Source: a virus
Direction: 5' to 3' (one strand)
IMG/VR virus record: IMGVR_UViG_3300045391_000819
Coordinates: 67,722-131,721 of that record
Length of the DNA: 64,000 bases
Below the pieces are notes generated by a model, which did not search any database, was not told where the DNA came from, and saw only the letters and a program-made list of their open reading frames with translations. Below, one piece after another: positions 44,494 to 64,000 of this stretch. A program made the translations under genes and the position numbers. Position 1 is the first letter of the stretch; the number at the start of each line of letters is the position of its first letter.

Positions 44494-46158
44494 TTAGAAC
44501 ACTACACCAGTAAACTGAGGACGTGCCTTTTCTATAATCAACGTACGAGTTACGTCTTTAACCCAGAGATTCGCAAAGCTCTTCATCCAGATTTGATAAC
44601 CATTGAAATGGTTTGCAGAGAACATACCCTTCATTCCTGAAGCACCTGTTGGTGAGTGTGTACCCTGAATGTAACCCCAGTAAAGATCACCATAGTTTTC
44701 TGGTTTAACCATTACTATGTTAGCGTTACTGTTGAATCCGTTTTCTACACGGTACTTAACATTGTCTACACGAGCTGCGGCGTTAGTTGACTTAGCATCT
44801 GTAACGTCCATAATCATGTAAGTGTAAGATTCGATTGGGTATTCACCGATCAAACCATCCTGTACACGGTTGTTGTAAACATTGTCAAGAGCAGGATTGA
44901 TTTCAAATTCAATCATACCTGCAATAGGCGATCTAAGCTGAGTAAATCTGTATCCGAATCCAAGATTCATTTCATCTGAACCGAACAACACCTTACCCGG
45001 AACATCACCTGTATTTGTAAGGAATGGAATAACTTGTTTGTATCTTTCTTCAAGTTCCTTAGAGATTTGGATCATTCCACCTGTACCAGTCATAATCTTA
45101 GTATGACGCTGTTCCAATGGAACTCCTGACTTAGAGTAAAGATTAGCAACGGCTGTTTCGATTAACTTAAGACTGATCTTATTGTAAACGTATCTGTTAC
45201 CGTTACGAAGTTGTTCATAAAGACCAACTCCAACTCTTACTTTTCTACGTCCTGTACCTTCTACGAAACCACCCTTAGCCCACATCAAATCCTTTTCAGT
45301 CATCGTTTCCATTTCTGCACGAAGCAAAAGTTCGATTGTTGGCTGCCAAGAGATTGTCTGAGGAAGAGGATTTCCTTTGCTGTCTTTGTTCATATAGACA
45401 GTAGTAGAACCCATACCTTCAAGACGCTGATTGATAAACGCTAATTGAGGATTCTTAGATTCGTCAATTCTCGCCATATCAGCATATCCTGTAATCCAGT
45501 GAGTTACTGAACGTTCACCAGTACCAAGTTCCCATTCAAGCTGCAAGAAGCCGCTTGTAGTAGTAACACCTGATTTCTGAACGTCGTATTCACCAACTGA
45601 GTTAGCAAGCTTAATGTACTGAGTACCGGGAGCAAGCCAAGCTTTTGGATAGTAAGTACCTTTACGATTGTGCGAAACGATCTGAACAGTGAAAACATCA
45701 CCATCTGATTGTTCGTCAATTTCTTCACCAGAAATGTAAAGTTCGATACCATCACGAAGGTCGGCAACGATACGATCTGTATTTGTGAACCCGCTGTCCT
45801 TAGACATTTTGATCTGGAAGGTTTGACCATCAAGACCGGGTTTTTCAGTTGTACCACTTAAATCTTCTACTATAAACGGAAGACCAACTTCGTAAGGAAC
45901 ACTACAACGGAAGCGTTGTTCAACATTCGGAAGATACATAACGTTGTTTTTAAGCAATGTCATGTTAATCAATGGAGTATTGATTATGCTACGTTGATTC
46001 CATAAAGCTAGTAATCCCTTATAAACTGTAAATGAGTCTTTGCTATACGCATTATACAGAAAGTTCAAGTCGGTAAATCTCTTAGGATCAAACTTAGTTT
46101 GACCAACTATAACCGAGTTATTTAGGGAAAATAAACTTGGAACTTTAAAATCTGTCAT
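44494..46158 (-). CDS. Major capsid protein (crAss-type HK97 fold)
   Basis: 554 aa; GVGLYEQLRNGN, IMTGTGG, INPALDN, YWGYIQG motifs; position after portal and scaffold. Confidence 0.85.
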   Translation of the reverse strand: MTDFKVPSLFSLNNSVIVGQTKFDPKRFTDLNFLYNAYSKDSFTVYKGLLALWNQRSIINTPLINMTLLKNNVMYLPNVEQRFRCSVPYEVGLPFIVEDLSGTTEKPGLDGQTFQIKMSKDSGFTNTDRIVADLRDGIELYISGEEIDEQSDGDVFTVQIVSHNRKGTYYPKAWLAPGTQYIKLANSVGEYDVQKSGVTTTSGFLQLEWELGTGERSVTHWITGYADMARIDESKNPQLAFINQRLEGMGSTTVYMNKDSKGNPLPQTISWQPTIELLLRAEMETMTEKDLMWAKGGFVEGTGRRKVRVGVGLYEQLRNGNRYVYNKISLKLIETAVANLYSKSGVPLEQRHTKIMTGTGGMIQISKELEERYKQVIPFLTNTGDVPGKVLFGSDEMNLGFGYRFTQLRSPIAGMIEFEINPALDNVYNNRVQDGLIGEYPIESYTYMIMDVTDAKSTNAAARVDNVKYRVENGFNSNANIVMVKPENYGDLYWGYIQGTHSPTGASGMKGMFSANHFNGYQIWMKSFANLWVKDVTRTLIIEKARPQFTGVVF

Positions 46159-53847: not shown

Positions 53848-54209
53848 ATTTTGGCTTTACTCCATTTTCTTTTATGTGTAAAATACGAATTAGCTATCTC
53901 GTTTCTACGTTCTAATAATCTTTTTAATTTTGTATATAATCTTATCCTAGTCTCTTCTCTCACATCTGGTTTGTAAATATTATCTAAAGTCCTTATATTC
54001 TTTATAATTACTTTTATTTCCTTTCTAAGTTTATGTCTACTTACAGCAATCGTTCCAAAGTTTTTTATAAAGATAGCGTTATAATTGGCTTCAGATAGAT
54101 TTCTCTTCACACCATTTTTCCAGAAATAGGCATTAACCTCTTTAACAATCTTCAAGTCCTTGCCTAATTTTTCTGCCGTTGCTTTATTAAAGTAATCAGG
54201 CGTTTTCAT
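53844..54209 (-). CDS. HU/IHF-like DNA-binding protein
   Basis: Basic; IFIKNFGTIAVS resembles the HU/IHF 'I.GFG.F.V' motif. Confidence 0.55.
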   Translation of the reverse strand: MKTPDYFNKATAEKLGKDLKIVKEVNAYFWKNGVKRNLSEANYNAIFIKNFGTIAVSRHKLRKEIKVIIKNIRTLDNIYKPDVREETRIRLYTKLKRLLERRNEIANSYFTHKRKWSKAKI

Positions 54210-54550
54210 TAACTATTATCTATCTGTATCAACATCCCAACTTTTACATCGAGAGTTAGATTTATATTCTCGTTAATCAAATATTCCTTTCTTCTACCTG
54301 CTGACTTCTTTATTAAACCTACTCTACTTAGCTTAGATATTGCATTCTTTAGAGAGTCTTCATTAAATATTTCGCTTTTAATAATGAGGTCTTTGGTCTC
54401 TTGCGTAATCTTATATACTAAAAAATAGGCAAGAACAGTCAACTCCGATTCAGAAAGTTTAATTTCTGATAAAAGGCAAAAAATCTTAAGCAAAGTCTTA
54501 GCCTGCTCGATCTTCGATTTAGTTTTCTTTACAACTTTAACGAGCTGCAT
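54209..54550 (-). CDS. Winged-helix-like hypothetical protein (start corrected to MQLVKVVK)
   Basis: The ORF-track start (54793) runs through tRNA genes. ATG at 54550 follows the 54580-54611 promoter. LKNAISKLSRVGLI is wHTH-like. Confidence 0.6.
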   Translation of the reverse strand: MQLVKVVKKTKSKIEQAKTLLKIFCLLSEIKLSESELTVLAYFLVYKITQETKDLIIKSEIFNEDSLKNAISKLSRVGLIKKSAGRRKEYLINENINLTLDVKVGMLIQIDNS

Positions 54551-54579
54551 TAGTTGGTTTTTATTAATTGATTCTGAAG

Positions 54580-54611
54580 CAAATATAATAAAAAAAGCTG
54601 AACTTACCAAA
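54580..54611 (-). promoter_or_regulatory. Bacteroidota sigma-A promoter (start of the morphogenesis operon)
   Basis: TTTG-N20-TATATTTG. Confidence 0.8.
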
Positions 54612-54656
54612 TCCATAAGGACTTGATAATCAGCTTTAACAATATTATAACGATTG

Positions 54657-54729
54657 CGTGCATGGAAGGAATCGAACCCACAACCTTCGGTTTTGGAGAC
54701 CGCTGCTCTACCAGTTGAGCTACACACAC
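54657..54729 (-). tRNA. trnW: tRNA-Trp(CCA)
   Basis: Cloverleaf; anticodon loop CT-CCA-AA; G73. Confidence 0.92.
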
Positions 54730-54735
54730 GTTTAG

Positions 54736-54811
54736 AACTCCCTGTCTGATTCGAACAGACACACAACTCTGGTTCGTAGCCAGAAGCACTCATCCATTAT
54801 GCTAAGGGAGC
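54736..54811 (-). tRNA. trnR: tRNA-Arg(ACG)
   Basis: Stem TCTGG/CCAGA, loop CT-ACG-AA. Confidence 0.9.
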
Positions 54812-54853
54812 AAGATCACCAGCATTTTCTCCAATTAAATTACCCGTTGGGTT

Positions 54854-54878
54854 AGAACGAGTTAGGATTCGAACCTAA
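54854..54878 (-). pseudogene. Orphan tRNA T-arm plus acceptor 3' strand
   Basis: TTAGG-TTCGAAT-CCTAA-CTCGTTC with no D or anticodon arm upstream. Confidence 0.5.
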
Positions 54879-54890
54879 AAGACTGGCGTG

Positions 54891-54965
54891 GGTGACTAAT
54901 CGGGATCGAACCGATACTCCTCTGCGTCACAGGCAGATACTTTAACCGTTTAAGCTATAGCCACC
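54891..54965 (-). tRNA. trnH: tRNA-His(GTG)
   Basis: Loop CT-GTG-AC; encoded G-1:C73 pair. Confidence 0.93.
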
Positions 54966-54970
54966 ATATG

Positions 54971-55043
54971 TTGCCTTGTTACGATTCGAACGTAAGTCGT
55001 CTGTTTCAGAGACAGAAATGTTTGACCGCTACACTACAAGGCA
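54971..55043 (-). tRNA. trnQ: tRNA-Gln(CTG)
   Basis: Loop CT-CTG-AA; T1:A72. Confidence 0.92.
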
Positions 55044-55046
55044 GTG

Positions 55047-55117
55047 TTCCCCTCGACAGACTCGAACTGCCACTTAGAAGCTTCAAAGGCTTCTGTGCTG
55101 CATTACACTAAAGGGGA
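55047..55117 (-). tRNA. trnQ: tRNA-Gln(TTG)
   Basis: Stem GAAGC/GCTTC, loop CT-TTG-AA; T1:A72. Confidence 0.88.
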
Positions 55118-55120
55118 GTG

Positions 55121-55196
55121 TGTGGATGATAAGAATCGAACTTACTTCAAGTCACGGAGCTTCAATCCGCCGCTATACCATATCAGCTACATCCAC
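55121..55196 (-). tRNA. trnF: tRNA-Phe(GAA)
   Basis: Stem GCGGA/TCCGT, loop TT-GAA-GC. Confidence 0.88.
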
Positions 55197-55532
55197 ATAT
55201 TTTAAAAAGTCTTGCTCATATCTAGTAGTATGTTCTAATCTATGACAATTAGCACATAATAATTCACATTTGTTTATTTCTTCCAACAAGATTTTCCAAG
55301 ACTTATGAGATACATTCCCTATGTTAAAACTTTTTGTAGATTCATCTTTATGATGAAATTCCAAAGCACCGGGATGATTATATCCACATTTTACACATTT
55401 TCCGCCAAGAAGATTTATAGCTTTAATCTTATTTCTATATCTTCTTATTTTGGTATTACATGAATGACAGCGTGTTCTATGACGTAATTGAAGCTGTCTA
55501 AATTCTCTTTTACAAATTTTACATATATCCAT
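55173..55532 (-). CDS. HNH homing endonuclease 1 (stop codon inside tRNA-Phe)
   Basis: CxxC N-terminus, LGGKCVKCGY...LEFHH...KCELLCANCHRLEH. Confidence 0.88.
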   Translation of the reverse strand: MDICKICKREFRQLQLRHRTRCHSCNTKIRRYRNKIKAINLLGGKCVKCGYNHPGALEFHHKDESTKSFNIGNVSHKSWKILLEEINKCELLCANCHRLEHTTRYEQDFLKYVDVADMV

Positions 55533-55536
55533 AATA

Positions 55537-55568
55537 CAAATATACGAAAAATTTTTGGTAATACCAAA
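55537..55568 (-). promoter_or_regulatory. Sigma-A promoter of HNH-1 (probably leaderless mRNA)
   Basis: TTTG-N20-TATATTTG; ATG only 4 nt downstream. Confidence 0.8.
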
Positions 55569-55582
55569 TTTGTTCTACCAAG

Positions 55583-55657
55583 AGCCTCTGGTCAGCCACG
55601 ATCTGACACTCCTCTGTTTACAAGACAGGAGCTTTACCTTCTTAAGCTACATGAGGC
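55583..55657 (-). tRNA. trnT: tRNA-Thr(TGT), atypical (possibly degenerate)
   Basis: Loop CT-TGT-AA; T-loop ATCGTGG instead of TTCRA; bulged A in the acceptor stem. Confidence 0.6.
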
Positions 55658-55695
55658 ATTTGACGGTGTTTATTGAGCTTTTCCGTCAGCTCTCG

Positions 55696-55771
55696 TCGGG
55701 ATGGCTGGATTCGAACCAGCGCATTCATGGCTCCAGACCACGTCGGAACAACCTGACTTCCGTACATCCCG
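55696..55771 (-). tRNA. trnP: tRNA-Pro(TGG)
   Basis: C1:G72, A73; loop TC-TGG-AG; canonical T arm. Confidence 0.9.
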
Positions 55772-55776
55772 ATAAC

Positions 55777-55801
55777 AAAAAACCCTCGAAGAATCGAGGG
55801 C
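55777..55801 (-). terminator. Attenuator C terminator
   Basis: GCCCTCGA-TTCT-TCGAGGGT followed by TTTTT, about 5 nt before tRNA-Pro. Confidence 0.88.
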
Positions 55802-55829
55802 TAACAATTTATGCAGATTTAAAGTTCAC

Positions 55830-55916
55830 TTATCTAAGTGTATCACCATCACGCATAGTTAGCCCTATCCCTGTGGGTTGGGTAAACCAAAAACGTGTAT
55901 GTTGAAACTTTATCAT
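55830..55916 (-). CDS. Leader peptide C, MIKFQHTRFWFTQPTGIGLTMRDGDTLR (28 aa)
   Basis: Manual translation. Codons 4-15 are all F/Q/H/T/R/W/P, the amino acids of the downstream tRNA block. Confidence 0.9.
   Translation of the reverse strand: MIKFQHTRFWFTQPTGIGLTMRDGDTLR
55858..55866 (-). promoter_or_regulatory. Antiterminator strand C
   Basis: AGGGCTAAC is a perfect 9-bp complement of GTTAGCCCT (55797-55805), which overlaps the terminator 5' arm. Confidence 0.82.
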
Positions 55917-55986
55917 TTTAAAAGAGGAATCCTACTTATTTCACCTATCGGCATAACCTGCGATATACGCATTTCAGATTCGAGAA

Positions 55987-56018
55987 CAAACTTACGACAA
56001 TTTTTTGAAATCACCAAA
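55987..56018 (-). promoter_or_regulatory. Sigma-A promoter of tRNA block C
   Basis: TTTG-N20-TAAGTTTG. Confidence 0.85.
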
Positions 56019-56052
56019 TTTATTTTGGGATTTTAACAAAAATTGATTATTG

Positions 56053-56121
56053 TGGGGCAGGAAGTACTCGAAACTTCGGGTTTGCGTTTTACAGACGTTA
56101 CCATTGCCCTGATTCTACCCC
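56053..56121 (-). tRNA. trnY: tRNA-Tyr(GTA), highly atypical
   Basis: Acceptor GGGGTAG/CTGCCCC and a normal T arm. CTGTAA loop has an irregular stem; short D arm; no long variable arm. Confidence 0.55.
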
Positions 56122-56127
56122 ATATAG

Positions 56128-56213
56128 CGGAGAGCATTGGATTCGAACCAATGGGCCGATTTCTCGACCACAGTTTAGCAAACTGCTCTAATTGACCACT
56201 CTAGCAGCTCTCC
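56128..56213 (-). tRNA. trnS: tRNA-Ser(GCT)
   Basis: Loop TT-GCT-AA; long variable arm; G73. Confidence 0.92.
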
Positions 56214-56216
56214 GGT

Positions 56217-56303
56217 TGGCGGTGGGAACAGGATTCGAACCTGCACAGCTGTTACACCTTCATGGTTTTCAAGACCAATAAGCCCTCTCTAATGCGTCCC
56301 ACC
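56217..56303 (-). tRNA. trnS: tRNA-Ser(TGA), CCA encoded
   Basis: Loop CT-TGA-AA; long variable arm; G73-CCA; unusual D arm. Confidence 0.85.
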
Positions 56304-56308
56304 GAATG

Positions 56309-56382
56309 TCCCTCTGACTGGTCTCGAACCAGCACTATACAGATTTTAAGTCTGCTGCGTCTCCCAATTGCGCCACAGAGGG
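56309..56382 (-). tRNA. trnL: tRNA-Leu(TAA), short variable loop
   Basis: Loop CT-TAA-AA; Leu-type D arm GGCGCAATTGGGAGACGC; A73. Confidence 0.9.
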
Positions 56383-56386
56383 TTAG

Positions 56387-56460
56387 TGCCGATGACAGGG
56401 GTCGAACCTGCGCAGTACTGCTTCTAAGGCAGTTGTGTCTCCCAATTGCACCACATCGGC
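56387..56460 (-). tRNA. trnL: tRNA-Leu(TAG), short variable loop
   Basis: Loop CT-TAG-AA; A73. Confidence 0.9.
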
Positions 56461-56463
56461 TTG

Positions 56464-56537
56464 TACCTGTAGAGGGTCTCGAACCCACACCTTATAGTTT
56501 TTGAAACTATTGCGTCTCCCAATTGCGCCATACAGGT
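56464..56537 (-). tRNA. trnL: tRNA-Leu(CAA), short variable loop
   Basis: Loop TT-CAA-AA; A73. Confidence 0.9.
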
Positions 56538-56539
56538 AT

Positions 56540-56573
56540 AAAAAAGAAAACCCCCCAGTTTTTAGCTGGAGGG
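56540..56573 (-). terminator. Attenuator B terminator
   Basis: CCCTCCAG-CTAAAAA-CTGGGGGG followed by TTTTCTTTTTT, abutting tRNA-Leu(CAA). Confidence 0.9.
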
Positions 56574-56603
56574 TCAAGTTAAATCCCGTAGGATAAAACA
56601 TCT

Positions 56604-56672
56604 TTACATACCACTTCCAGCTCTCAGTTCACTGAGATAATACAGACTGGAATATGATAAGCAATTTTTCAT
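56604..56672 (-). CDS. Leader peptide B, MKNCLSYSSLYYLSELRAGSGM (22 aa)
   Basis: Manual translation. Codons 5-14 are all L/S/Y, the amino acids of the downstream tRNA block. Confidence 0.9.
   Translation of the reverse strand: MKNCLSYSSLYYLSELRAGSGM
56616..56622 (-). promoter_or_regulatory. Antiterminator strand B
   Basis: AGCTGGA is the 7-bp complement of TCCAGCT (56564-56570) in the terminator 5' arm and loop. Confidence 0.78.
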
Positions 56673-56782
56673 TTTGATTTCTGGAATAGTTCTTTTACTT
56701 TTGTAAATACCCAAGTCAATGCGTCGATGATGGGTTCTTTAAAGAAAGCACCAATAACAGCACCAATTAATAGGTTAATCAT
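56669..56782 (-). CDS. 37-aa putative membrane peptide MINLLIGAVIGAFFKEPIIDALTWVFTKVKELFQKSK
   Basis: Manual translation; hydrophobic N-terminus; its TGA overlaps the ATG of leader B (ATGA). Confidence 0.7.
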   Translation of the reverse strand: MINLLIGAVIGAFFKEPIIDALTWVFTKVKELFQKSK

Positions 56783-56812
56783 AATTTATAAGGTTTAATT
56801 AAAAAACGAATG

Positions 56813-56844
56813 CAAATATACGGAAAATTTCTGAAATTACCAAA
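56813..56844 (-). promoter_or_regulatory. Sigma-A promoter of tRNA block B
   Basis: TTTG-N20-TATATTTG. Confidence 0.85.
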
Positions 56845-57688
56845 TTCTTCCTCTATTTTTTATTTTTCTATATCTAACTGCTTCATCTGCAAGGTTTCGC
56901 ATCATAGTTGGATTCCTTGTAGCCTTGTGATATTCATTGGCAAGTCTCTCATTTATTCTTGCGTGAGTCTGGCCTTCCCATATTCTAGTCGTATAATCAC
57001 GGCCTACAAATGGATGCCATAGATGGAAGATACAACCTCTTTTAGTCTTGTGTTTACCGTACAAGGTATCAAGTGCTCTAAGCAAAGCTACATCCTCACC
57101 ACCCCATCCTACAAATCTTTCGTCAAAACAGCCAATCGCTTCATAGGCTTCTCTTGGAAATATCATAGCCATAGCTCCATATCTGTGTCCATATCTGCTC
57201 TTATCCCTATGATCGCTTAACATATGATCTTGTGGATGACATATAATGCGTACAGGACATTCAGGTACTGAAGCTAAAATATCCTCAGTTATACATCTAT
57301 TCAAACGATACAAATGACGATAAGGAACGAACCATAAATGCTTGTCAAGATTTTCTAATATCTTATCTGCACATGATTCTACTATGTGACCGGGCAGGTA
57401 AGCATCAGCATCAAGGATAGCTATAACCCTTCCTCTTGATTTTCTAACAGCATCATTAAGGGCTTCACCCTTACAAAATACTCTACCTCTGGAGCGTCCC
57501 ACAACAATTTCTGCTTGTGGAAGTTCAGCTCTCCAGTATCTCATTAGCCACTGAAAGGCTGCTAGTCTCCAAGGATCAGTAGAAGAAAAAGGGATTATAA
57601 TGCTTATTTTCGGTCTTTTTCTAAATATTCTTCTCCTATCTCCTAGTAAAAATTTTCTTAATCTCTTCAAAAACGTCAAAGATTTCAT
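56837..57688 (-). CDS. Glycosyltransferase, GT2/GT7-like
   Basis: ISIIIPF, ILDADAY (DxD), GCFDERFVGWGGEDV. Confidence 0.88.
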   Translation of the reverse strand: MKSLTFLKRLRKFLLGDRRRIFRKRPKISIIIPFSSTDPWRLAAFQWLMRYWRAELPQAEIVVGRSRGRVFCKGEALNDAVRKSRGRVIAILDADAYLPGHIVESCADKILENLDKHLWFVPYRHLYRLNRCITEDILASVPECPVRIICHPQDHMLSDHRDKSRYGHRYGAMAMIFPREAYEAIGCFDERFVGWGGEDVALLRALDTLYGKHKTKRGCIFHLWHPFVGRDYTTRIWEGQTHARINERLANEYHKATRNPTMMRNLADEAVRYRKIKNRGRIW

Positions 57689-58364
57689 GTTGTTTGTCTA
57701 TTATAATGTTTCTATCAATAAGTTGGGTCACGCCAATTTCAAGCTTAACACCTAAGCTTGCGCTATAATCCAACCATTTAAACAATCCACCCTCTTGGTG
57801 GGAGTGACTTAACATTCTTGGTGAGATTTCAATTCGTCTTGGGATATTAAAAGCATCAGCTAAAACAATCCCATGTAAAGACGAACTGACAATTTTCTTA
57901 CATTTTCCTATCTCGCTTATTACCTTCAGCGGATCGTCTGATACCCTAATTATCTTAGGGTTGTATTTTAGAAAGGTAGGATTTTTTTCAAGGGTTTTAT
58001 CTGTCCAATGCGGAACAAGTCCTAGGTCATATTGTTTATCTTCAATTTTGACAAGCTCATCAGCAAGCAGACCGGGATCACCTAATACAAAATTGCCCTT
58101 TAATCCTTTTGCAGTTAATGGCCCACGTAAGGCCAAAATCTTTGCATAAGGTAAGTCCAATTTTGTATTTTCATGCAGTTTACCAGCACCAGCAATTACT
58201 CCATCCCAATATTTTGGCAAATGTTCAAGGATAGAACCGATAACTACTAACTCTGCATAATCTGGATCAGTCCACTGAGAATCCAATCCTGTAAATCGCT
58301 TTATCAGCAAGGAAGAAAGCAAATCGCCAAAATTTCTTTTCGCTTGCCAATAGTATAATCTCAT
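57636..58364 (-). CDS. Polysaccharide pyruvyltransferase family protein
   Basis: NFGDLLS, GSIL, ALRGPLT, GDPGLL, GLVPHW, IVSSSLHGIVLADAFNIP. Confidence 0.88.
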   Translation of the reverse strand: MRLYYWQAKRNFGDLLSSLLIKRFTGLDSQWTDPDYAELVVIGSILEHLPKYWDGVIAGAGKLHENTKLDLPYAKILALRGPLTAKGLKGNFVLGDPGLLADELVKIEDKQYDLGLVPHWTDKTLEKNPTFLKYNPKIIRVSDDPLKVISEIGKCKKIVSSSLHGIVLADAFNIPRRIEISPRMLSHSHQEGGLFKWLDYSASLGVKLEIGVTQLIDRNIIIDKQHEIFDVFEEIKKIFTRR

Positions 58365-58439
58365 CGTCGTTCGTTAAACTTTTAGTAAAGTTACTAATAA
58401 ATGAGATAGGTTCAAAATAGATAATTATTTTTGATGACA

Positions 58440-58895
58440 TTATAAGCGACATAAGTGGTCAGCAGCTTTCGCTGCTATCATGTCGTCTGGCTTTATTCTA
58501 GTCTGGTATCCTAGTGAGTTTGCCCATCCTGTCAAAGCAGGAATCAAGTTAGTAGATTTTGTAATCTTTTTATTGTTATAGTCAAACTCTAATGCTTCGA
58601 TCTTCAATGGAATTTCAGCCACTATCATTTCAGCACACTCAATTGTAAGTTCTCCTTCTTTCCAAAGTCTAGTAAAGATGTCACGGATTCTTGGAATACG
58701 CTGTTTCAAATAGATGTAGTGAGCACCACGCTGTCCGTAACGGAATACAATAGCTGTTACAAATACTGACTTTCCCCCATAATTTTGTGAATCGGTTGCT
58801 ATGTAAATCTTTAGATTGTCCTGTTTGACTTGTTCCTGACAATGTTCTATTACATTTACAAGACCTCCCTCTTCTGTCTTGAAGTACTTTTCCAT
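58440..58895 (-). CDS. RNase H-like protein, YkuK/DUF458 family
   Basis: IYIATDSQ, RLWKE, EFDYN, IKPD..IAAKAADH. Confidence 0.8.
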   Translation of the reverse strand: MEKYFKTEEGGLVNVIEHCQEQVKQDNLKIYIATDSQNYGGKSVFVTAIVFRYGQRGAHYIYLKQRIPRIRDIFTRLWKEGELTIECAEMIVAEIPLKIEALEFDYNNKKITKSTNLIPALTGWANSLGYQTRIKPDDMIAAKAADHLCRL

Positions 58896-58907
58896 TGGTT
58901 TTTATTG

Positions 58908-58981
58908 TGGAGGTGATGGGATTCGAACCCACCCCAAGTTGCTTGCAAAGCATCTTCGCCAACCATAGGCCATGCACCCCC
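58908..58981 (-). tRNA. trnA: tRNA-Ala(TGC)
   Basis: G3:U70; loop TT-TGC-AA; A73; unusual D arm. Confidence 0.88.
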
Positions 58982-58985
58982 GTAG

Positions 58986-59058
58986 TGCTCATACTAAGAC
59001 TCGAACTTAGACTCACCTGAGTATCAGTCAGGTACTTTAACCATTAAGCTATATGAGC
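58986..59058 (-). tRNA. trnI: tRNA-Ile(GAT)
   Basis: Stem CCTGA/TCAGG, loop CT-GAT-AC. Confidence 0.93.
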
Positions 59059-59061
59059 ATG

Positions 59062-59134
59062 TGCTCCTACTCGGACTCGAACCAAGACTCTTGTGGATAT
59101 AAGCCACCTGCTTTCACCGTTAAGCTATAGGAGC
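59062..59134 (-). tRNA. trnI: tRNA-Ile(TAT)
   Basis: Stem GTGG/CCAC, loop CT-TAT-AT; body paralogous to the adjacent Ile(GAT). Confidence 0.88.
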
Positions 59135-59296
59135 GAGATTATGATCTTTAATGGCTTTCTCAAGTCTTTTGTTCGCTTTAATCAATTCCGAGATAGATTT
59201 GAAAGTTCCAAGCTGTCTCAAAACCTCTATGTCATCTACTTCCAAAATCGCCATATAACCTTTAAATTTTCTTTCTTCCGCAGTGATTTGTAGCAT
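59120..59296 (-). CDS. 58-aa hypothetical protein (start corrected; stop inside tRNA-Ile(TAT))
   Basis: The ORF-track start overlaps tRNA-Asp. ATG at 59296 follows the 59320-59350 promoter. Confidence 0.55.
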   Translation of the reverse strand: MLQITAEERKFKGYMAILEVDDIEVLRQLGTFKSISELIKANKRLEKAIKDHNLAPIA

Positions 59297-59319
59297 CTTT
59301 CCCACTTTTACATGATTCT

Positions 59320-59350
59320 CAAATATACATAAGTATACCGTATACCCAAA
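59320..59350 (-). promoter_or_regulatory. Internal sigma-A promoter
   Basis: TTTG-N19-TATATTTG. Confidence 0.7.
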
Positions 59351-59393
59351 TAGGGATACGCCAGCGAATAGTATAAGAAATATCCAAAACAAG

Positions 59394-59470
59394 CCGTGAG
59401 CAAGGGGTTCGAACCCTCCTGATTGTACTCCGTGACAGGGAGACGGCCACTCCAAGCAGCCCCGCCCACG
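59394..59470 (-). tRNA. trnD: tRNA-Asp(GTC)
   Basis: Loop CT-GTC-AC; G73; starts immediately after the stop of the 59471..60838 gene. Confidence 0.9.
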
Positions 59471-60838
59471 TTATTTTATTTTTCTCCAAACTCTATTGTG
59501 AACGATATTAAATAGGTGTTCATATTGATCGTGATTAATTCCGGGTGGTAAAAGTTCATCCACTCCATCACAAACAGATTGAATACCTCTAAAATATCCC
59601 CAAGGCATCGGAAATTTACATGCCGAATCATCTATAACCAGATAGCCTCCAACTTTGAGCAAAGGCCCATAGTTTATAATGTCACTCTGAACGCAGGATT
59701 TCGCATGACAACCATCTATATATAGAATATCCAACAGTAATCCGCTTGCGCTTTCTATAACTTTGGGATCAGTTGAATCTCCTTTCAGTATAATATAATC
59801 AGCCCAGATATTAAACTGGTCATGAATCTTTCTTATATCTGCTTCATAATCACTTTCCCAATTTATTTCAGCAGGCGATAAAGGCGTCACCCCGTATCGC
59901 ATCACTGATTTTCCAGCTAAATTTGCTAGCATACCAATCAGTGAAAGAATTTGACCTCTGAATACTCCGATTTCTAAGAAAACAAAATGTTCAGGCATCT
60001 TATCTACCAATAACTTCCACATCCATTGAAAACTACGTTCTCCAAATCCCCAAGCATTCTGTTCAACCCAATCTCTGTGTGCCTTTAATTCTGGTGAATT
60101 ATTGACCTTCTTTTTAAAAACATCATTGGTTTTAACATTGTATTGCTCAGTAGGCTGCCACAGTTTTATTACTTCATCTATAGAATTATATTCATCATCA
60201 AGTAAATCAATGATCTTAGTCATATCCGTCCTTCCGTTACCATGAATTATAGAAGGTTCGGTTCCAGTATTCTTGTTTATCAATCTACCACTCTTATATT
60301 CAAATTCACCTTCCGCTATAAATGAATAACATTGAAATATCTCGCAGTTATAATCTAAAGTTATATTACCCTTTAGAAATACGTTTGTAAAGAAGAGTTG
60401 GTCATCATCTGCATATCCTACTGAGTATTCTTTAAGTAAATTCAAGAACTTTTCAATAGGAGCCATATAACTACCTGAGTTTAAATACTTATATAAGGAT
60501 TCATTTTCAGGATAACTATTTGCCAAGGTTGGATCAGGCCAGCAATTCTTCTCAGTCGAAAATACTATTTGGTCTTGGAAACGAGCATCATAGATTTTCT
60601 CTATATTCTCCAATCCGTCTAAGAATATTACATCATAAGCATCTACGAAAATAAAGTGAGTGTAGCCTGCAAGTAATTTCAAATATTGTTGTAATAATAT
60701 TATCTTAGTTCCAAATCCCTTCCATCTGCTTTTTTTACCTAAAATTACTAGGTCTATACCTTTGCGTTCTAAACTATATTTTAATCTATCAAGTCCTTCA
60801 TCTTCCTTAGTTGCTACAGTAATTACTACAGTTCTCAT
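59471..60838 (-). CDS. PLOD/LH3-type glycosyltransferase domain fused to a class I SAM methyltransferase
   Basis: N-terminus VITVAT...W.GFG.KI..L...FVDAYDV...FSTEKNCWPD...YLNSG...DDDQLFFT...LD...IFQ...HGNG. C-terminus FLEIGVFRG...ILYIDG.H...D...Y..LLK.GG..V.DD. Confidence 0.88.
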   Translation of the reverse strand: MRTVVITVATKEDEGLDRLKYSLERKGIDLVILGKKSRWKGFGTKIILLQQYLKLLAGYTHFIFVDAYDVIFLDGLENIEKIYDARFQDQIVFSTEKNCWPDPTLANSYPENESLYKYLNSGSYMAPIEKFLNLLKEYSVGYADDDQLFFTNVFLKGNITLDYNCEIFQCYSFIAEGEFEYKSGRLINKNTGTEPSIIHGNGRTDMTKIIDLLDDEYNSIDEVIKLWQPTEQYNVKTNDVFKKKVNNSPELKAHRDWVEQNAWGFGERSFQWMWKLLVDKMPEHFVFLEIGVFRGQILSLIGMLANLAGKSVMRYGVTPLSPAEINWESDYEADIRKIHDQFNIWADYIILKGDSTDPKVIESASGLLLDILYIDGCHAKSCVQSDIINYGPLLKVGGYLVIDDSACKFPMPWGYFRGIQSVCDGVDELLPPGINHDQYEHLFNIVHNRVWRKIK

Positions 60839-61449
60839 GGTTTATATTGATACAGAGCCTTCTTGTCCCTTTTCTCAACTATCTTAAATCCTATATTAAG
60901 TAGGTAATCTTCTATCTTTTGATGGTCATAATATACATCCTGTGTACTTACATCATCAAAACAAAAACAAGCTCCTTCGTTTATTCTAGTCTCGAAAAAT
61001 TGTACTTCCTTAAGAATTGCTTCTACTGAATGTGGCCCATCAAAGTTTACAAACGAATACTTATCAACTAACTTTCTACTAATACTATATACAGGAATCC
61101 CATCTTTATAATAATCAAAAAAATCCAAATCACTCATATTAATGAAAACGAAATGAACGTTCTTATGATTAGCGTATGGATAAAGTAACTGCAAACAATC
61201 AGCCTTCATCGCTTCTGTATAATCCAATCTAACAAAATGATTCTGCTTATGTTCATAAAGCACTGAACCATATGGGTCTATAGCAACTGCTATTTTATTC
61301 GGACAATGACGATGGATAGAATCTATTATCTCTTTGGTTCCACCTCCCATCCTAAGACCTATCTCTAAACAAGCTCCTTCAGTATCTTTGCTTAACTGTA
61401 CTCCTTTATATACTAAGTCGTAATCCCAACTGTCGCCGTGTAGTTTCAT
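60835..61449 (-). CDS. Class I SAM-dependent methyltransferase
   Basis: CLEIGLRMGGGT, AIDPY, FVNFDGPH, FCFDD. Confidence 0.82.
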   Translation of the reverse strand: MKLHGDSWDYDLVYKGVQLSKDTEGACLEIGLRMGGGTKEIIDSIHRHCPNKIAVAIDPYGSVLYEHKQNHFVRLDYTEAMKADCLQLLYPYANHKNVHFVFINMSDLDFFDYYKDGIPVYSISRKLVDKYSFVNFDGPHSVEAILKEVQFFETRINEGACFCFDDVSTQDVYYDHQKIEDYLLNIGFKIVEKRDKKALYQYKP

Positions 61450-62210
61450 TTAAAAGGATTATAGTAAATAGATTGTTTTCCTTCTCTGTAACCTCTTAAA
61501 ACTTTGTGATACTCTTGCCATTGTTCGCCAGCATGATTCTCCTTCCAAGTTTGATATGGTGTACCACCTGCATCTATATGGTCAATATCTATATAAGGTA
61601 GAAACACGTTTATAAAACCAGCGAGCTGACTTCTGACTGATGCAAGTGAATCATCAAATCCGTAAAGTCTAGGTTGATAAAGGTATCCAATTTTGTCAAG
61701 CAATGCTGATGAATACATTTGACATGTTCCCATAACATGATTGACTTTCTCTGCTACCATCCATTTTTCACCCGGTTTATGTGGAAGCATTATGAGTTCT
61801 GATTTGTAAAAATCTGTACGCTCTGGTGATTCCCATAAGTCTTTCCTTTTAAGTCCAACCTGTCCAATTGTAGGCTCTCTTCTAATAGCTTCTTCCATTT
61901 CATCCACCCAATCATAACTATTAACTATTACATCATTATCCATTTTAATACAATTCTCACCTTCTTTACGAAACTTCCAAGCTCTATTTATTGCTTCTGC
62001 TGTTCCAATGTTATGTCCATTTATTAGAATAGTTGCATTAGGAAAATCATGATATAATTGTTTGGTTTCATCACAAGAATTATTATCTATTATAAATATT
62101 CTATGTTTGTGATAATCAATTCTGTCAAAGAGCGATTCTAATGTGCGTCGTGTATATTCCGTCCGTTTATTCTCTTCGGTATCATACACAGCCATTGCAA
62201 TTAATGCCAT
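61446..62210 (-). CDS. Glycosyltransferase family 2
   Basis: IIDNNSCD, NIGTAEAIN, KMDNDV (DxD), YGFDD. Confidence 0.85.
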   Translation of the reverse strand: MALIAMAVYDTEENKRTEYTRRTLESLFDRIDYHKHRIFIIDNNSCDETKQLYHDFPNATILINGHNIGTAEAINRAWKFRKEGENCIKMDNDVIVNSYDWVDEMEEAIRREPTIGQVGLKRKDLWESPERTDFYKSELIMLPHKPGEKWMVAEKVNHVMGTCQMYSSALLDKIGYLYQPRLYGFDDSLASVRSQLAGFINVFLPYIDIDHIDAGGTPYQTWKENHAGEQWQEYHKVLRGYREGKQSIYYNPFK

Positions 62211-62223
62211 TGGTTTTATTTAG

Positions 62224-62296
62224 TACTCCCAACCAGATTCGAACTGGTGTTCTAAGCTTGAAGGGCTTCTGTCCTCGACCACTAGACGATAGGAGC
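62224..62296 (-). tRNA. trnE: tRNA-Glu(TTC), C at position 33
   Basis: Glu-type D arm (GTCTAGTGGTCGAGGAC); stem AAGC/GCTT; loop CC-TTC-AA. Confidence 0.85.
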
Positions 62297-62302
62297 AATT
62301 AG

Positions 62303-62375
62303 AGCGGAAAGAGAGAATCGAACTCTCATGTCCAGTTTGGAAGACTGGTGTAATCAGCCATTATACGACTTCCGC
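62303..62375 (-). tRNA. trnG: tRNA-Gly(TCC)
   Basis: Stem CCAGT/ACTGG, loop CT-TCC-AA; U73. Confidence 0.93.
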
Positions 62376-62452
62376 TGCTTACGGTTTTACACCCACTAGC
62401 AGATGGGTGCTGTGCTGCCACACTCTAGTTGCTAAACCGAAAAAAGCACTCG
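62376..62452 (-). ncRNA. Structured spacer RNA 3' of tRNA-Met with HDV/theta-like helix order
   Basis: GTGCT/AGCAC, CGGTTT/AAACCG and CACCCA/TGGGTG helices; no obvious catalytic C. Confidence 0.35.
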
Positions 62453-62523
62453 TTGCGAGGGATGGAGTTGAACCACCCCAAAACAAAGTTATGAGCCTTG
62501 TCGGGCCACCGGGCCTCCTCACA
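62453..62523 (-). tRNA. trnM: tRNA-Met(CAT), truncated D arm
   Basis: Loop CT-CAT-AA; T1:A72; T-loop TTCAACT. Initiator vs elongator identity is uncertain. Confidence 0.75.
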
Positions 62524-62704
62524 ATATTCTTACACCTGTATCAATAGTCCAAAGGATTATCTTACCTTCTCTTACATTCTCTAAGAGTTTTTTAAGCTCA
62601 TAGACTGAGTCTTTAAGAGGTAGGGATGAAAGCCAGTGTATTAGCTTATCCCTATTTCCTTTGTACTTTACTATACTTGCAACCTTTACTTTAGGTTCTT
62701 TCAT
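62519..62704 (-). CDS. 61-aa hypothetical protein (stop inside tRNA-Met)
   Basis: ORF track; fills the gap between the tRNA-like RNA and tRNA-Met. Confidence 0.55.
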   Translation of the reverse strand: MKEPKVKVASIVKYKGNRDKLIHWLSSLPLKDSVYELKKLLENVREGKIILWTIDTGVRIL

Positions 62705-62705
62705 G

Positions 62706-62857
62706 CTGTAAGGGTAGGATTCGAACCTACATGTGGGGATTCAAATAGATACACAAGATTTTTTACCATTAGTGGTCAACCCGATTATATCTATTCTATT
62801 TCACCATTCCACGCCCCTGAGACAAAGGGGTGCGTCTGCCAGTTTCGCCACCTTACA
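62706..62857 (-). ncRNA. 152-nt tRNA-like RNA with an 83-nt variable-arm insertion
   Basis: Acceptor TGTAAGG/CCTTACA, Leu-like D arm, CCCCT-TTGTCTC-AGGGG arm, perfect T arm GTAGG-TTCGAAT-CCTAC. Confidence 0.75.
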
Positions 62858-62864
62858 ATTTTCG

Positions 62865-62936
62865 CTGGAGTGGAGAATTTCGAAATCTCAACCTAATGCT
62901 TAACAGGCAATTGCTCTCCCTTTGAGCTACACTCCA
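62865..62936 (-). tRNA. trnN: tRNA-Asn(GTT)
   Basis: T1:A72, G73; loop CT-GTT-AA. Confidence 0.9.
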
Positions 62937-63319
62937 TTATGATGTTCTTTTCTATGACAATTTGCACACAAAACTACGCACTTGTCAATTTCTTTTAATA
63001 ATCTTTTTCTTCCCCATGTTGCCATACCGCCCACCTGAAAATCTTTTTTACTTGGATCAACATGATGAAACTCTAAACAAGCAATATGCTTTTCTCCACA
63101 TCTCTCACAGGCTAAATTTCTTTTAAGTTCTCTAAACCATTCTTTTAATCTGTGGTTACTTTCTCTGGCTTTATCTATATACTTTTGTTTATTCTTTTGA
63201 TAATGTTCTCGTATATAAATTTTTCTACACTCTTTGCACATTGATTGGAAACCATTTCCTTTCCTATGGAAATTTGTTTCATTTTTTGGTAGATGACATC
63301 TTATACATATTCTTTCCAT
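62927..63319 (-). CDS. HNH homing endonuclease 2 (start corrected to MERICIRC; stop inside tRNA-Asn)
   Basis: CxxC...CxxC N-terminus, CERCGE..ACLEFHHVDP..K.F...KCVVLCANCHRKEH. The ORF-track start overlaps tRNA-Arg. Confidence 0.88.
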   Translation of the reverse strand: MERICIRCHLPKNETNFHRKGNGFQSMCKECRKIYIREHYQKNKQKYIDKARESNHRLKEWFRELKRNLACERCGEKHIACLEFHHVDPSKKDFQVGGMATWGRKRLLKEIDKCVVLCANCHRKEHHNGV

Positions 63320-63323
63320 AAAA

Positions 63324-63355
63324 CAAATATACATAAAATATTCGAAACTACCAAA
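63324..63355 (-). promoter_or_regulatory. Sigma-A promoter of HNH-2 (probably leaderless mRNA)
   Basis: TTTG-N20-TATATTTG; ATG 4 nt downstream. Confidence 0.8.
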
Positions 63356-63372
63356 TATTTTAGAAACTTTCG

Positions 63373-63445
63373 AAGAGCTGATGTGAGTCGAACACATATT
63401 CTTTGCTTAGAAGGCAAGAGTCCTCATCCATTAAACGACAGCTCC
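63373..63445 (-). tRNA. trnR: tRNA-Arg(TCT)
   Basis: Loop CT-TCT-AA; canonical T arm. Confidence 0.88.
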
Positions 63446-63448
63446 ATG

Positions 63449-63523
63449 TACATCTGAGTAGATTCGAACTACTGGTCTCCCACTTGTAAGGAGGGCGCTT
63501 TCAACCAACTAAGCTACAGATGC
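63449..63523 (-). tRNA. trnV: tRNA-Val(TAC)
   Basis: Loop CT-TAC-AA; T-T mismatch in the anticodon stem. Confidence 0.9.
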
Positions 63524-63585
63524 GTTTGCTGACTTTGACGTACGTACGCAAGTGTTATTCGTCAGCAATATTCCACTCGTCAATG

Positions 63586-63660
63586 AGGACAGGGAGGGAT
63601 TCAAACCCCCGACTTTACTGCTTTGCAGGCAGTTGCATTCAATCACTCTGCCACCTGTCC
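63586..63660 (-). tRNA. trnC: tRNA-Cys(GCA)
   Basis: Loop CT-GCA-AA; U73. Confidence 0.92.
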
Positions 63661-63663
63661 ATG

Positions 63664-63737
63664 TGCTCCGACTCGGACTCGAACCGAGAACCTTCTCCTT
63701 AAGAGGGAGTAGCTCCACGCAATTGAGCTATCGAAGC
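63664..63737 (-). tRNA. trnK: tRNA-Lys(CTT)
   Basis: Loop CT-CTT-AA. Confidence 0.9.
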
Positions 63738-63740
63738 GTG

Positions 63741-63815
63741 TGCACTCGGAGGGCATCGAACCCCCGACCCCAAGATTAAAAGTCAAGTACTCTACCAAAA
63801 CTGAGCTACGAGTGC
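63741..63815 (-). tRNA. trnK: tRNA-Lys(TTT)
   Basis: Loop CT-TTT-AA; stem CTTGA/TCTTG has two T-T mismatches. Confidence 0.88.
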
Positions 63816-63845
63816 AAATAAAAAACCCTGCTTGTTCAGCAGGGC
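63816..63845 (-). terminator. Attenuator A terminator
   Basis: GCCCTGCT-GAACA-AGCAGGGT followed by TTTTTATTT, directly abutting tRNA-Lys(TTT). Confidence 0.9.
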
Positions 63846-63875
63846 TTCAGTATTTTCAGTAAAATGACTATGTTG

Positions 63876-63968
63876 TTATTTGTCACCACTAGACAATACG
63901 ATCCCTGCACCAGCAAGCTCTTTCGCTCTGCCGTTGCCACAAATCATATTATCCACTATTAAATACAT
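63876..63968 (-). CDS. Leader peptide A, MYLIVDNMICGNGRAKELAGAGIVLSSGDK (30 aa)
   Basis: Manual translation. Codons 4-17 use only, and all of, I,V,D,N,M,C,G,R,A,K,E, the 11 amino acids of the downstream tRNA block. Confidence 0.88.
   Translation of the reverse strand: MYLIVDNMICGNGRAKELAGAGIVLSSGDK
63903..63908 (-). promoter_or_regulatory. Antiterminator strand A
   Basis: GCAGGG duplicates the terminator 3' arm and can pair with CCCTGC (63839-63844) in the 5' arm. Confidence 0.7.
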
Positions 63969-64000
63969 TTTCTGCTGTTTTGTAAATTTGGACTGCAAAC

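Follow-up and report, generated by a model that had tools for sequence, protein, structure and literature searches.

To our knowledge, it is largely unexplained when phages make their own tRNAs and in what doses, and tRNA genes are generally thought to be controlled at their promoters and by processing, not by attenuation. The locus described here raises the question of whether a block of phage tRNA genes may be switched by translation of a short leader in front of it. It lies at the end of the window, by which we mean the whole 64,000-nt stretch of DNA that was analysed. A preliminary description, made from the letters of the window, had read positions 63816-64000 as an attenuator. We put at about three in four the probability that this segment, together with some 30 nt past the window edge, is a ribosome-mediated (leader-peptide) transcription attenuator that heads tRNA block A. 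This estimate draws on sequence and on modelled RNA folds, and the earlier reading has gained support from a promoter, from the recurrence of the unit in three blocks and 58 leaders, from codons that track the tRNA genes and from competing helices. The phage would thus probably make its block A tRNAs when the leader codons are read slowly.

Leader A and the tRNA genes behind it

The window belongs to a genome assembled as one contig of 131,721 nt, the first and last 69 nt of which are identical (window 63932-64000 equals contig 1-69). This terminal direct overlap implies that the assembly is circular or circularly permuted, with a length of 131,652 nt, and that the window end continues at contig position 70. 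The open reading frame at 44497-46158 matched the Pfam family Crass_capsid (E = 5e-33), and in relatives P22_portal and Crass_capsid genes stand beside the same tRNA array, in the capsid/portal order of crAss-type phages. Judged by these genes, the phage is crAss-like (Crassvirales-type).

Reading across the circular join gave a full promoter ahead of the leader reading frame, TTTG-N20-TATGTTTG. The letters GTTTG at the window edge (63996-64000, minus strand) had been suspected to be a truncated TAnnTTTG box. They proved to be the last five bases of a -7 box that reaches extended coordinate 64003, and the -33 TTTG, 20 nt upstream, falls at extended coordinates 64027-64024 (minus strand), past the window edge on the wrapped contig start. 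This is the TTTG/TAnnTTTG promoter type known from Bacteroidota. Sites of the form TTTG-N19-21-TAnnTTTG occurred nine times in the window against 1.5 expected, including at the heads of leaders B and C (see below); a scan with the sigma-70 consensus was uninformative (41 sites against 38.5 expected).

Transcription would start near 63990, as deduced from the -7 box, leaving an A-rich 5' untranslated leader of about 22 nt (63969-63990, minus strand) in which no Shine-Dalgarno sequence was found. The sole alternative in-frame start in the window, a TTG at 63998, lies within the -7 box, so that the ATG at 63968 is the first start codon of the predicted transcript. Reading the flank, as the preliminary description had proposed, thereby completed the promoter and placed the ATG behind the expected start site. 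It also removed the worry that the frame might be the 3' end of a longer upstream gene, since a stop codon closes the frame 29 codons upstream of the ATG and the leader has its own promoter; the nearest upstream gene, an open reading frame of 68 codons, ends about 75 nt before the ATG. Just 5' of the ATG, an AGCAG(A) motif (63971-63977, minus strand) is kept in A-type leaders, including those of relatives L006, L008, L010 and L012; in this genome, some bases of the terminator 5' arm are able to pair with it in the ribosome-free state.

The leader reading frame comprises 30 codons and a TAA (63876-63968, minus strand; ATG at 63968-63966, stop at 63878-63876). Behind it lies tRNA block A (58907-63815, minus strand), in which ARAGORN called 13 tRNA genes, in an order that is kept in relatives: Lys (two), Cys, Val, Arg(tct), Asn, Met, Gly(tcc), Glu, Asp, Ile (two) and Ala. 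Inserted among them are reading frames for an HNH endonuclease, a glycosyltransferase-like and a methyltransferase-like protein. Codons 4-17 of the leader (63918-63959, minus strand), which we call the sensor, encode Ile Val Asp Asn Met Ile Cys Gly Asn Gly Arg Ala Lys Glu. These are exactly the 11 specificities of the 13 tRNAs, as had been described, and the ARAGORN set is identical; codons 2-3 (Tyr, Leu), which had been assigned to another block, are indeed both served by the next one.

The match between sensor and tRNA set is far beyond chance. All six frames of the circular genome together contain 122,012 stop-free 14-codon windows, and only one of them, the leader itself, uses this 11-amino-acid set. 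Since the end of block A could be chosen freely, we tested every prefix of the tRNA array; the prefix sets of at least six amino acids were matched by none of the 35,506 30-residue segments of the genome's real open reading frames.

Codon by codon, 12 of the 14 sensor codons have a standard match among the anticodons of the block. The exceptions are the two GGC codons, which, as had been pointed out, have no standard match in Gly(UCC), the phage's only tRNA-Gly. We searched the whole genome for a tRNA-Gly(GCC) that would explain them and found none, and a 76-nt gap beside tRNA-Gly holds no tRNA; tRNA-Gly(GCC) is present in several relatives. AAG, the codon for tRNA-Lys(CUU), is missing from the sensor.

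Directly after the last tRNA gene of the block, a gene for a YkuK/DUF458 RNase H-like protein (58443-58895, minus strand) starts 11 nt downstream of tRNA-Ala and probably belongs to the same transcription unit. A YkuK/DUF458-like gene was found directly 3' of tRNA-Ala (at about 11-15 nt) in every fetched relative of the clade (e.g. L003 9768-10226, L004 5977-6435), and so close an association suggests that the gene's function is connected with the tRNA array, precursor processing being one possibility.

Two sites resembling promoters were seen inside block A, at 63355, ahead of the inserted HNH gene, and at 59350; these could feed distal tRNAs independently of the attenuator. HNH endonuclease-like reading frames with their own TTTG/TAnnTTTG promoters lie between tRNA genes at 62927-63355 and 55190-55568 (both minus strand), and one of the inserted HNH-like frames overlaps the start of tRNA-Asn with its 3' end. 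They look like homing-endonuclease insertions and may partly bypass the attenuators.

Leaders of the other blocks and of related phages

Two further tRNA blocks of the same genome have leaders of their own. Block B carries tRNAs for Leu (three), Ser (two) and Tyr, two of which were called only at a relaxed ARAGORN threshold. Ahead of it stand a promoter at 56844, a 22-codon reading frame containing a run of ten Leu, Ser and Tyr codons, and a terminator at 56575-56549. Block C carries Pro, Thr, Phe, Gln (two), His, Arg(acg) and Trp; its leader has a promoter at 56018, a terminator at 55802-55781 and a 28-codon reading frame in which twelve consecutive codons use exactly the block's seven amino acids. 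Only one of 133,779 windows in the genome has the block C set, and the block B pattern occurs in five of 147,521. Together, sensors A, B and C cover all 20 amino acids.

The two tRNAs missed at default settings are an unusual tRNA-Tyr(gta) of 70 nt, in which the variable arm is short and the D arm weak, and a tRNA-Ser(tga), at 56052-56121 and 56217-56303 (minus strand). A small hydrophobic reading frame of 36-50 codons is often found directly 5' of a leader frame (56669-56780 on the minus strand here; L014 8029-8151, L015 8506-8616 and L007 10532-10684 in relatives). In this genome, it overlaps the start of leader B (ATGA), while in relatives it precedes leaders of other blocks, and from this arrangement it may couple translation into the leader.

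We reached the loci of relatives through 178 homologues of the YkuK/DUF458-like protein, with surroundings taken from Logan, JGI and IMG/VR. A search of IMG/VR with the single YkuK-like protein gave no close relative, and an alignment-based search succeeded; when the leader region served as a DNA query against a phage collection, the only matches were to tRNA genes of unrelated phages. The resulting sample holds 58 distinct leaders from about 27 related phage contigs, which share ancestry, so that leader counts overstate independence. Nearer relatives have the tRNA order seen here, and ahead of each block they carry a promoter, a short ATG reading frame and a terminator abutting the first tRNA. 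An ATG reading frame was present in all 58 distinct leaders, and it ended 15-45 nt before the terminator.

We then compared leader codons with the tRNAs called automatically in the block behind each leader. A window with an amino-acid set identical to that of the leader's own block was found in 33 of the 58 leaders, and 48 reached a Jaccard index of at least 0.85; none of 1,500 control segments from real proteins reached 0.85 for the A or C sets. In every one of 88 comparisons, the leader fitted its own block better than another block of the same phage. With the sensor zone fixed blindly at codons 2-20, block amino acids were represented in 363 of 406 cases (89%) and other amino acids in 341 of 834 (41%), giving an odds ratio of 12. 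In distant relatives, the order of residues was scrambled and their composition kept, a pattern that favours selection for codon content over selection for a peptide.

Leader content also moved with the tRNA genes, although such covariation amounts to few independent events. In a second phage group, tRNA-Cys sits in the Pro-led block; there, Cys codons appear in the Pro-block sensor runs, and the Lys-block runs lack Cys and cover the remaining ten amino acids. The relative L009 has its tRNA-Met gene ahead of leader A, and Met codons are missing from its sensor. A third group, more distantly related, has a single leader of 35-37 codons, and the 15-16 amino acids that it samples are those of the array behind it. 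Two close members of this group differ in a tRNA-Val gene, and their sensors in a Leu-to-Val replacement; this pair is only suggestive of covariation.

The unit was also found in a deposited isolate, the Leptolyngbya phage Lbo-JY46 (PP438436.1, L150), in which the tRNA genes stand in the order seen here, behind three codon-matched leaders and their terminators (L150 1839-2014, 5391-5529 and 6120-6254). The element is conserved across a broad environmental crAss-like clade, and its presence in Lbo-JY46 brings bench work within reach. The Leu-led block of Lbo-JY46 seems to lack Ser and Tyr tRNAs and its leader keeps Ser and Tyr codons. The named host, the cyanobacterium Leptolyngbya boryana, sits oddly with a Bacteroidota-type promoter.

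Across the 1.77 Mb of loci that were fetched, a 14-mer, GATGATAATTGGGG, encoding Asp-Asp-Asn-Trp-Gly before the stop, was found in only three copies, where about 0.01 would be expected. The copies (L004 9661, L007 10762 and L008 8325) lie at the 3' ends of leader frames in different phages, ahead of blocks of different types (C, B and A).

Competing helices and the position of the ribosome

The leader ends in a predicted intrinsic terminator, a hairpin with an 11-bp stem (63848-63822) whose T tract (63816-63825) ends one base before tRNA-Lys(ttt). Its 5' arm (region 3) spans 63838-63848 and its 3' arm (region 4) 63822-63832, with the loop at 63837-63833. The preliminary description had noticed that GCAGGG at 63908-63903 copies the terminator 3' arm, and the 3' arm of this hairpin does contain GCAGGG. 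The copy lies in region 2 (63885-63909), which would pair either with the terminator 5' arm, through GCAGGG and neighbouring bases, or with region 1 (63934-63959), which lies inside the sensor and would act as the 5' strand of an anti-antiterminator helix. All of these elements are on the minus strand.

Folding of the 175-nt leader gave -55.7 kcal/mol, against -35.1 +/- 3.5 for shuffled sequences (z = -5.95), and the minimum-energy fold corresponded to the off state, with the long 1:2 helix and the terminator. The 1:2 helix was predicted at -21.8 kcal/mol (z = -3.9), and none of 200 shuffles of sensor codon order was as good; in 28 of the 58 leaders, it stood out from codon-order shuffles at p <= 0.05. 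This helix had not been seen earlier. It completes a classical four-segment attenuator, and it explains a conserved element downstream of GCAGGG.

The 2:3 duplex, the putative antiterminator, had been described as having a core of only 6 bp. The core is of that size in this genome, but with flanking pairs the duplex extends to -15.0 kcal/mol (z = -1.4; 8% of shuffles equal it), and in relatives it reaches 8-12 bp. It is thus among the weaker ones here, and it beat shuffles in 36 of the 58 leaders. In a swap test, a leader's own terminator arm was the best partner of its region 2 in 25 of the 58 leaders, where 1.1 were expected, which indicates that region 2 covaries with region 3. These tests compared duplex energies computed sequence by sequence with those of shuffles, together with the swap test. 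Alignment-based pair counting was dropped, because a MAFFT alignment of 18 A-type leaders left the terminator arms out of register. On the shuffle and swap tests, the model of three mutually exclusive trp-type helices (1:2, 2:3 and 3:4) is supported.

We also simulated stalled ribosomes by masking the RNA that they would occupy. With the A site at any of codons 2-16, region 2 was free and eight of the 11 bases of the terminator 5' arm paired with it before the 3' arm had been made. From codon 17 on, region 2 was itself masked, and from codon 18 on there was no antiterminator. The productive range of stalls coincides with the sensor, and the same holds for leaders B and C.

In the mechanism that we propose, transcription would start near 63990 and a ribosome would translate the 30-codon leader while RNA polymerase approached the hairpin and its U tract. 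With fast decoding, or with no ribosome, region 1 would pair with region 2, the 3:4 terminator would form and the transcript would end just before tRNA-Lys. Were the ribosome to linger at any of codons 2-16, for want of an aminoacyl-tRNA, it would cover region 1; region 2 would then pair with the terminator 5' arm and the polymerase would pass the terminator site and enter the block of 13 tRNA genes. Each block A amino acid has one or two codons in the sensor, most of them readable by the block's own tRNAs, and the sensor would therefore open the block when any of its tRNAs ran short and let it close again once supply recovered. We infer that the leader is translated, that its translation is coupled to termination at 63816 and that stalling opens rather than closes the block.

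The same parts could obey another logic, in which leader translation promotes read-through when decoding is good, or in which a stalled ribosome acts through Rho, RNase cleavage or processing of tRNA precursors. In leader A, 25 nt separate region 2 from the stop codon downstream, so that region 2 would stay uncovered by a terminating ribosome; the trp-type step in which the ribosome covers region 2 is then absent, and the off state has to come from the 1:2 helix forming again. The weak 2:3 duplex of this genome and the constant linkage of an RNase H-like gene to the array point the same way. We nevertheless consider this reading unlikely, since 1:2, 2:3 and 3:4 are each statistically supported and mutually exclusive, and since the stalls that free region 2 fall within the sensor, as the classical logic predicts.

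Codon choice and the signal that may be sensed

If stalling opens the block, the leader might report either a shortage of particular tRNAs or a lack of amino acids. We therefore asked whether codon choice in the leaders follows the anticodons of the blocks. Ahead of blocks with tRNA-Arg(tct), Arg was encoded by AGA in 16 of 19 cases, and ahead of blocks with tRNA-Arg(acg) by CGT, CGC or CGA in 15 of 18; CGH makes up only 25% of Arg codons in the long reading frames of this genome's 12.9-kb tRNA region. Both ATA and ATT or ATC were present in 12 of the 13 leaders that precede blocks with both Ile tRNAs. Overall, 400 of 486 anticodons had a cognate codon within leader codons 2-20, against 362 +/- 6 when synonymous codons were resampled from phage codon usage; this is an excess of 6 s.d. 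that none of 500 replicates reached.

These results bear on the possibility that leader A is a classical attenuator that senses starvation, that is, a fall in charging for 11 amino acids, and not the abundance of particular tRNAs, with the tRNA genes serving as a general starvation response. What leader-peptide attenuators (trp, his, leu, thr, ilv) respond to is the level of aminoacyl-tRNA, and this would fall in either case; the match of leader A is perfect at the level of amino acids and incomplete at the level of codons (GGC; no AAG). Starvation sensing is, however, quite unlikely in our view: the choice of AGA or CGY tracks the tRNA-Arg of the block, both types of Ile codon occur, anticodon coverage lies 6 s.d. 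above resampling, and extra tRNA would not relieve a lack of amino acids. The reading that leader A is an ordinary small phage gene with its own terminator, matching the array by coincidence or as a side effect of a conserved peptide, is very improbable: short reading frames and terminators are common in phage tRNA regions and the Asp-Asn-Met-Ile-Cys stretch conserved in close relatives could be read as such a peptide, but the match is unique in the genome and recurs in three blocks and 58 leaders, residue order is shuffled with composition kept in distant relatives, content moves with the tRNA genes, and the conserved stretch is accounted for by the 1:2 helix.

Because codon choice follows isoacceptors, the trigger that we favour for the leader-peptide attenuator is a shortage of particular aminoacyl-tRNAs during infection. 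Slightly better than even, in our estimate, are the odds that the leaders form a codon-resolved monitor of decoding capacity, in which one to three leader peptides would sample the amino acids of the array down to isoacceptors, each opening its own tRNA block when any sampled codon is slow. Codons could become slow when host tRNAs are lost, when defence nucleases cleave tRNA or when codon usage shifts to that of the phage.

In structure, the locus has the parts of an attenuator, namely a short reading frame near the transcript start, regulatory codons, a terminator and competing helices. It shares with the thr (Thr, Ile), ilvGMEDA (Ile, Leu, Val), trpL, hisL, leuL and pheL attenuators of enterobacteria a promoter-proximal short reading frame with regulatory codons, an intrinsic terminator before the first regulated gene and helices 1:2, 2:3 and 3:4, and the thr and ilv leaders, like leader A, sense more than one amino acid. 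Enterobacterial leaders regulate biosynthetic enzymes, however, whereas 13 tRNA genes and inserted reading frames lie downstream of leader A. They use runs of codons for one to three amino acids, whereas leader A holds one or two codons for each of 11 and follows the isoacceptors. Leader A differs further in its stop codon well past region 2, its phage setting and its TTTG/TAnnTTTG promoter.

All attenuators of this class that we know of regulate enzymes of amino-acid biosynthesis or a synthetase. The pheST operon of E. coli, with its pheM leader, resembles leader A in that a leader-peptide attenuator adjusts the decoding apparatus and not amino-acid synthesis. It is cellular, makes a synthetase and uses Phe codons only, whereas the products behind leader A are the tRNAs themselves, which would close a direct feedback loop. 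T-box elements likewise report tRNA status by transcription attenuation, with an antiterminator opposed to a terminator, but they bind uncharged tRNA directly, without translation, through a specifier loop and a conserved T-box sequence, whereas leader A would sense through a translated reading frame. An Rfam cmscan of 54000-64000 with E values up to 0.1 returned no T-box, Trp_leader, His_leader, Leu_leader or Thr_leader, only tRNA-type and chance plastid matches over the tRNA genes.

The tRNA clusters of T4, T5 and the human-gut crAss-like phage cr111_1 are similar in being large arrays that are transcribed from promoters upstream and have homing-endonuclease genes inserted in them. Unlike block A, the cr111_1 array has no evident leader/terminator unit ahead of it, which suggests that the element is confined to one clade and does not extend to all crAss-like phages; we know of no leader reading frame and terminator unit for the T4 or T5 clusters. 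In full-text literature searches, we found no account of tRNA genes, phage or cellular, being controlled by a leader peptide.

The locus would therefore represent, as far as sequence can tell, a known attenuation mechanism with a new class of target, tRNA genes, read through an 11-amino-acid sensor with isoacceptor-specific codons. If true, tRNA genes would here be seen for the first time to be governed by leader-peptide attenuation, and phages would have a self-correcting supply of tRNA on demand, in which a textbook mechanism, extended to a new target class, forms a direct feedback loop. As a reporter of how fast particular codons are decoded, the leader would also be both natural and compact, and with it one could test whether phage tRNAs are a response to the depletion of host tRNAs or to defences that target tRNA.

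In part of the clade, a tRNA with a CTA anticodon, of the amber-suppressor type, follows tRNA-Ala (L009 10845-10917; also L010, L100 and L102), and its anticodon hints at stop-codon recoding in these phages. In L009, this tRNA lies behind a terminator-like hairpin of its own.
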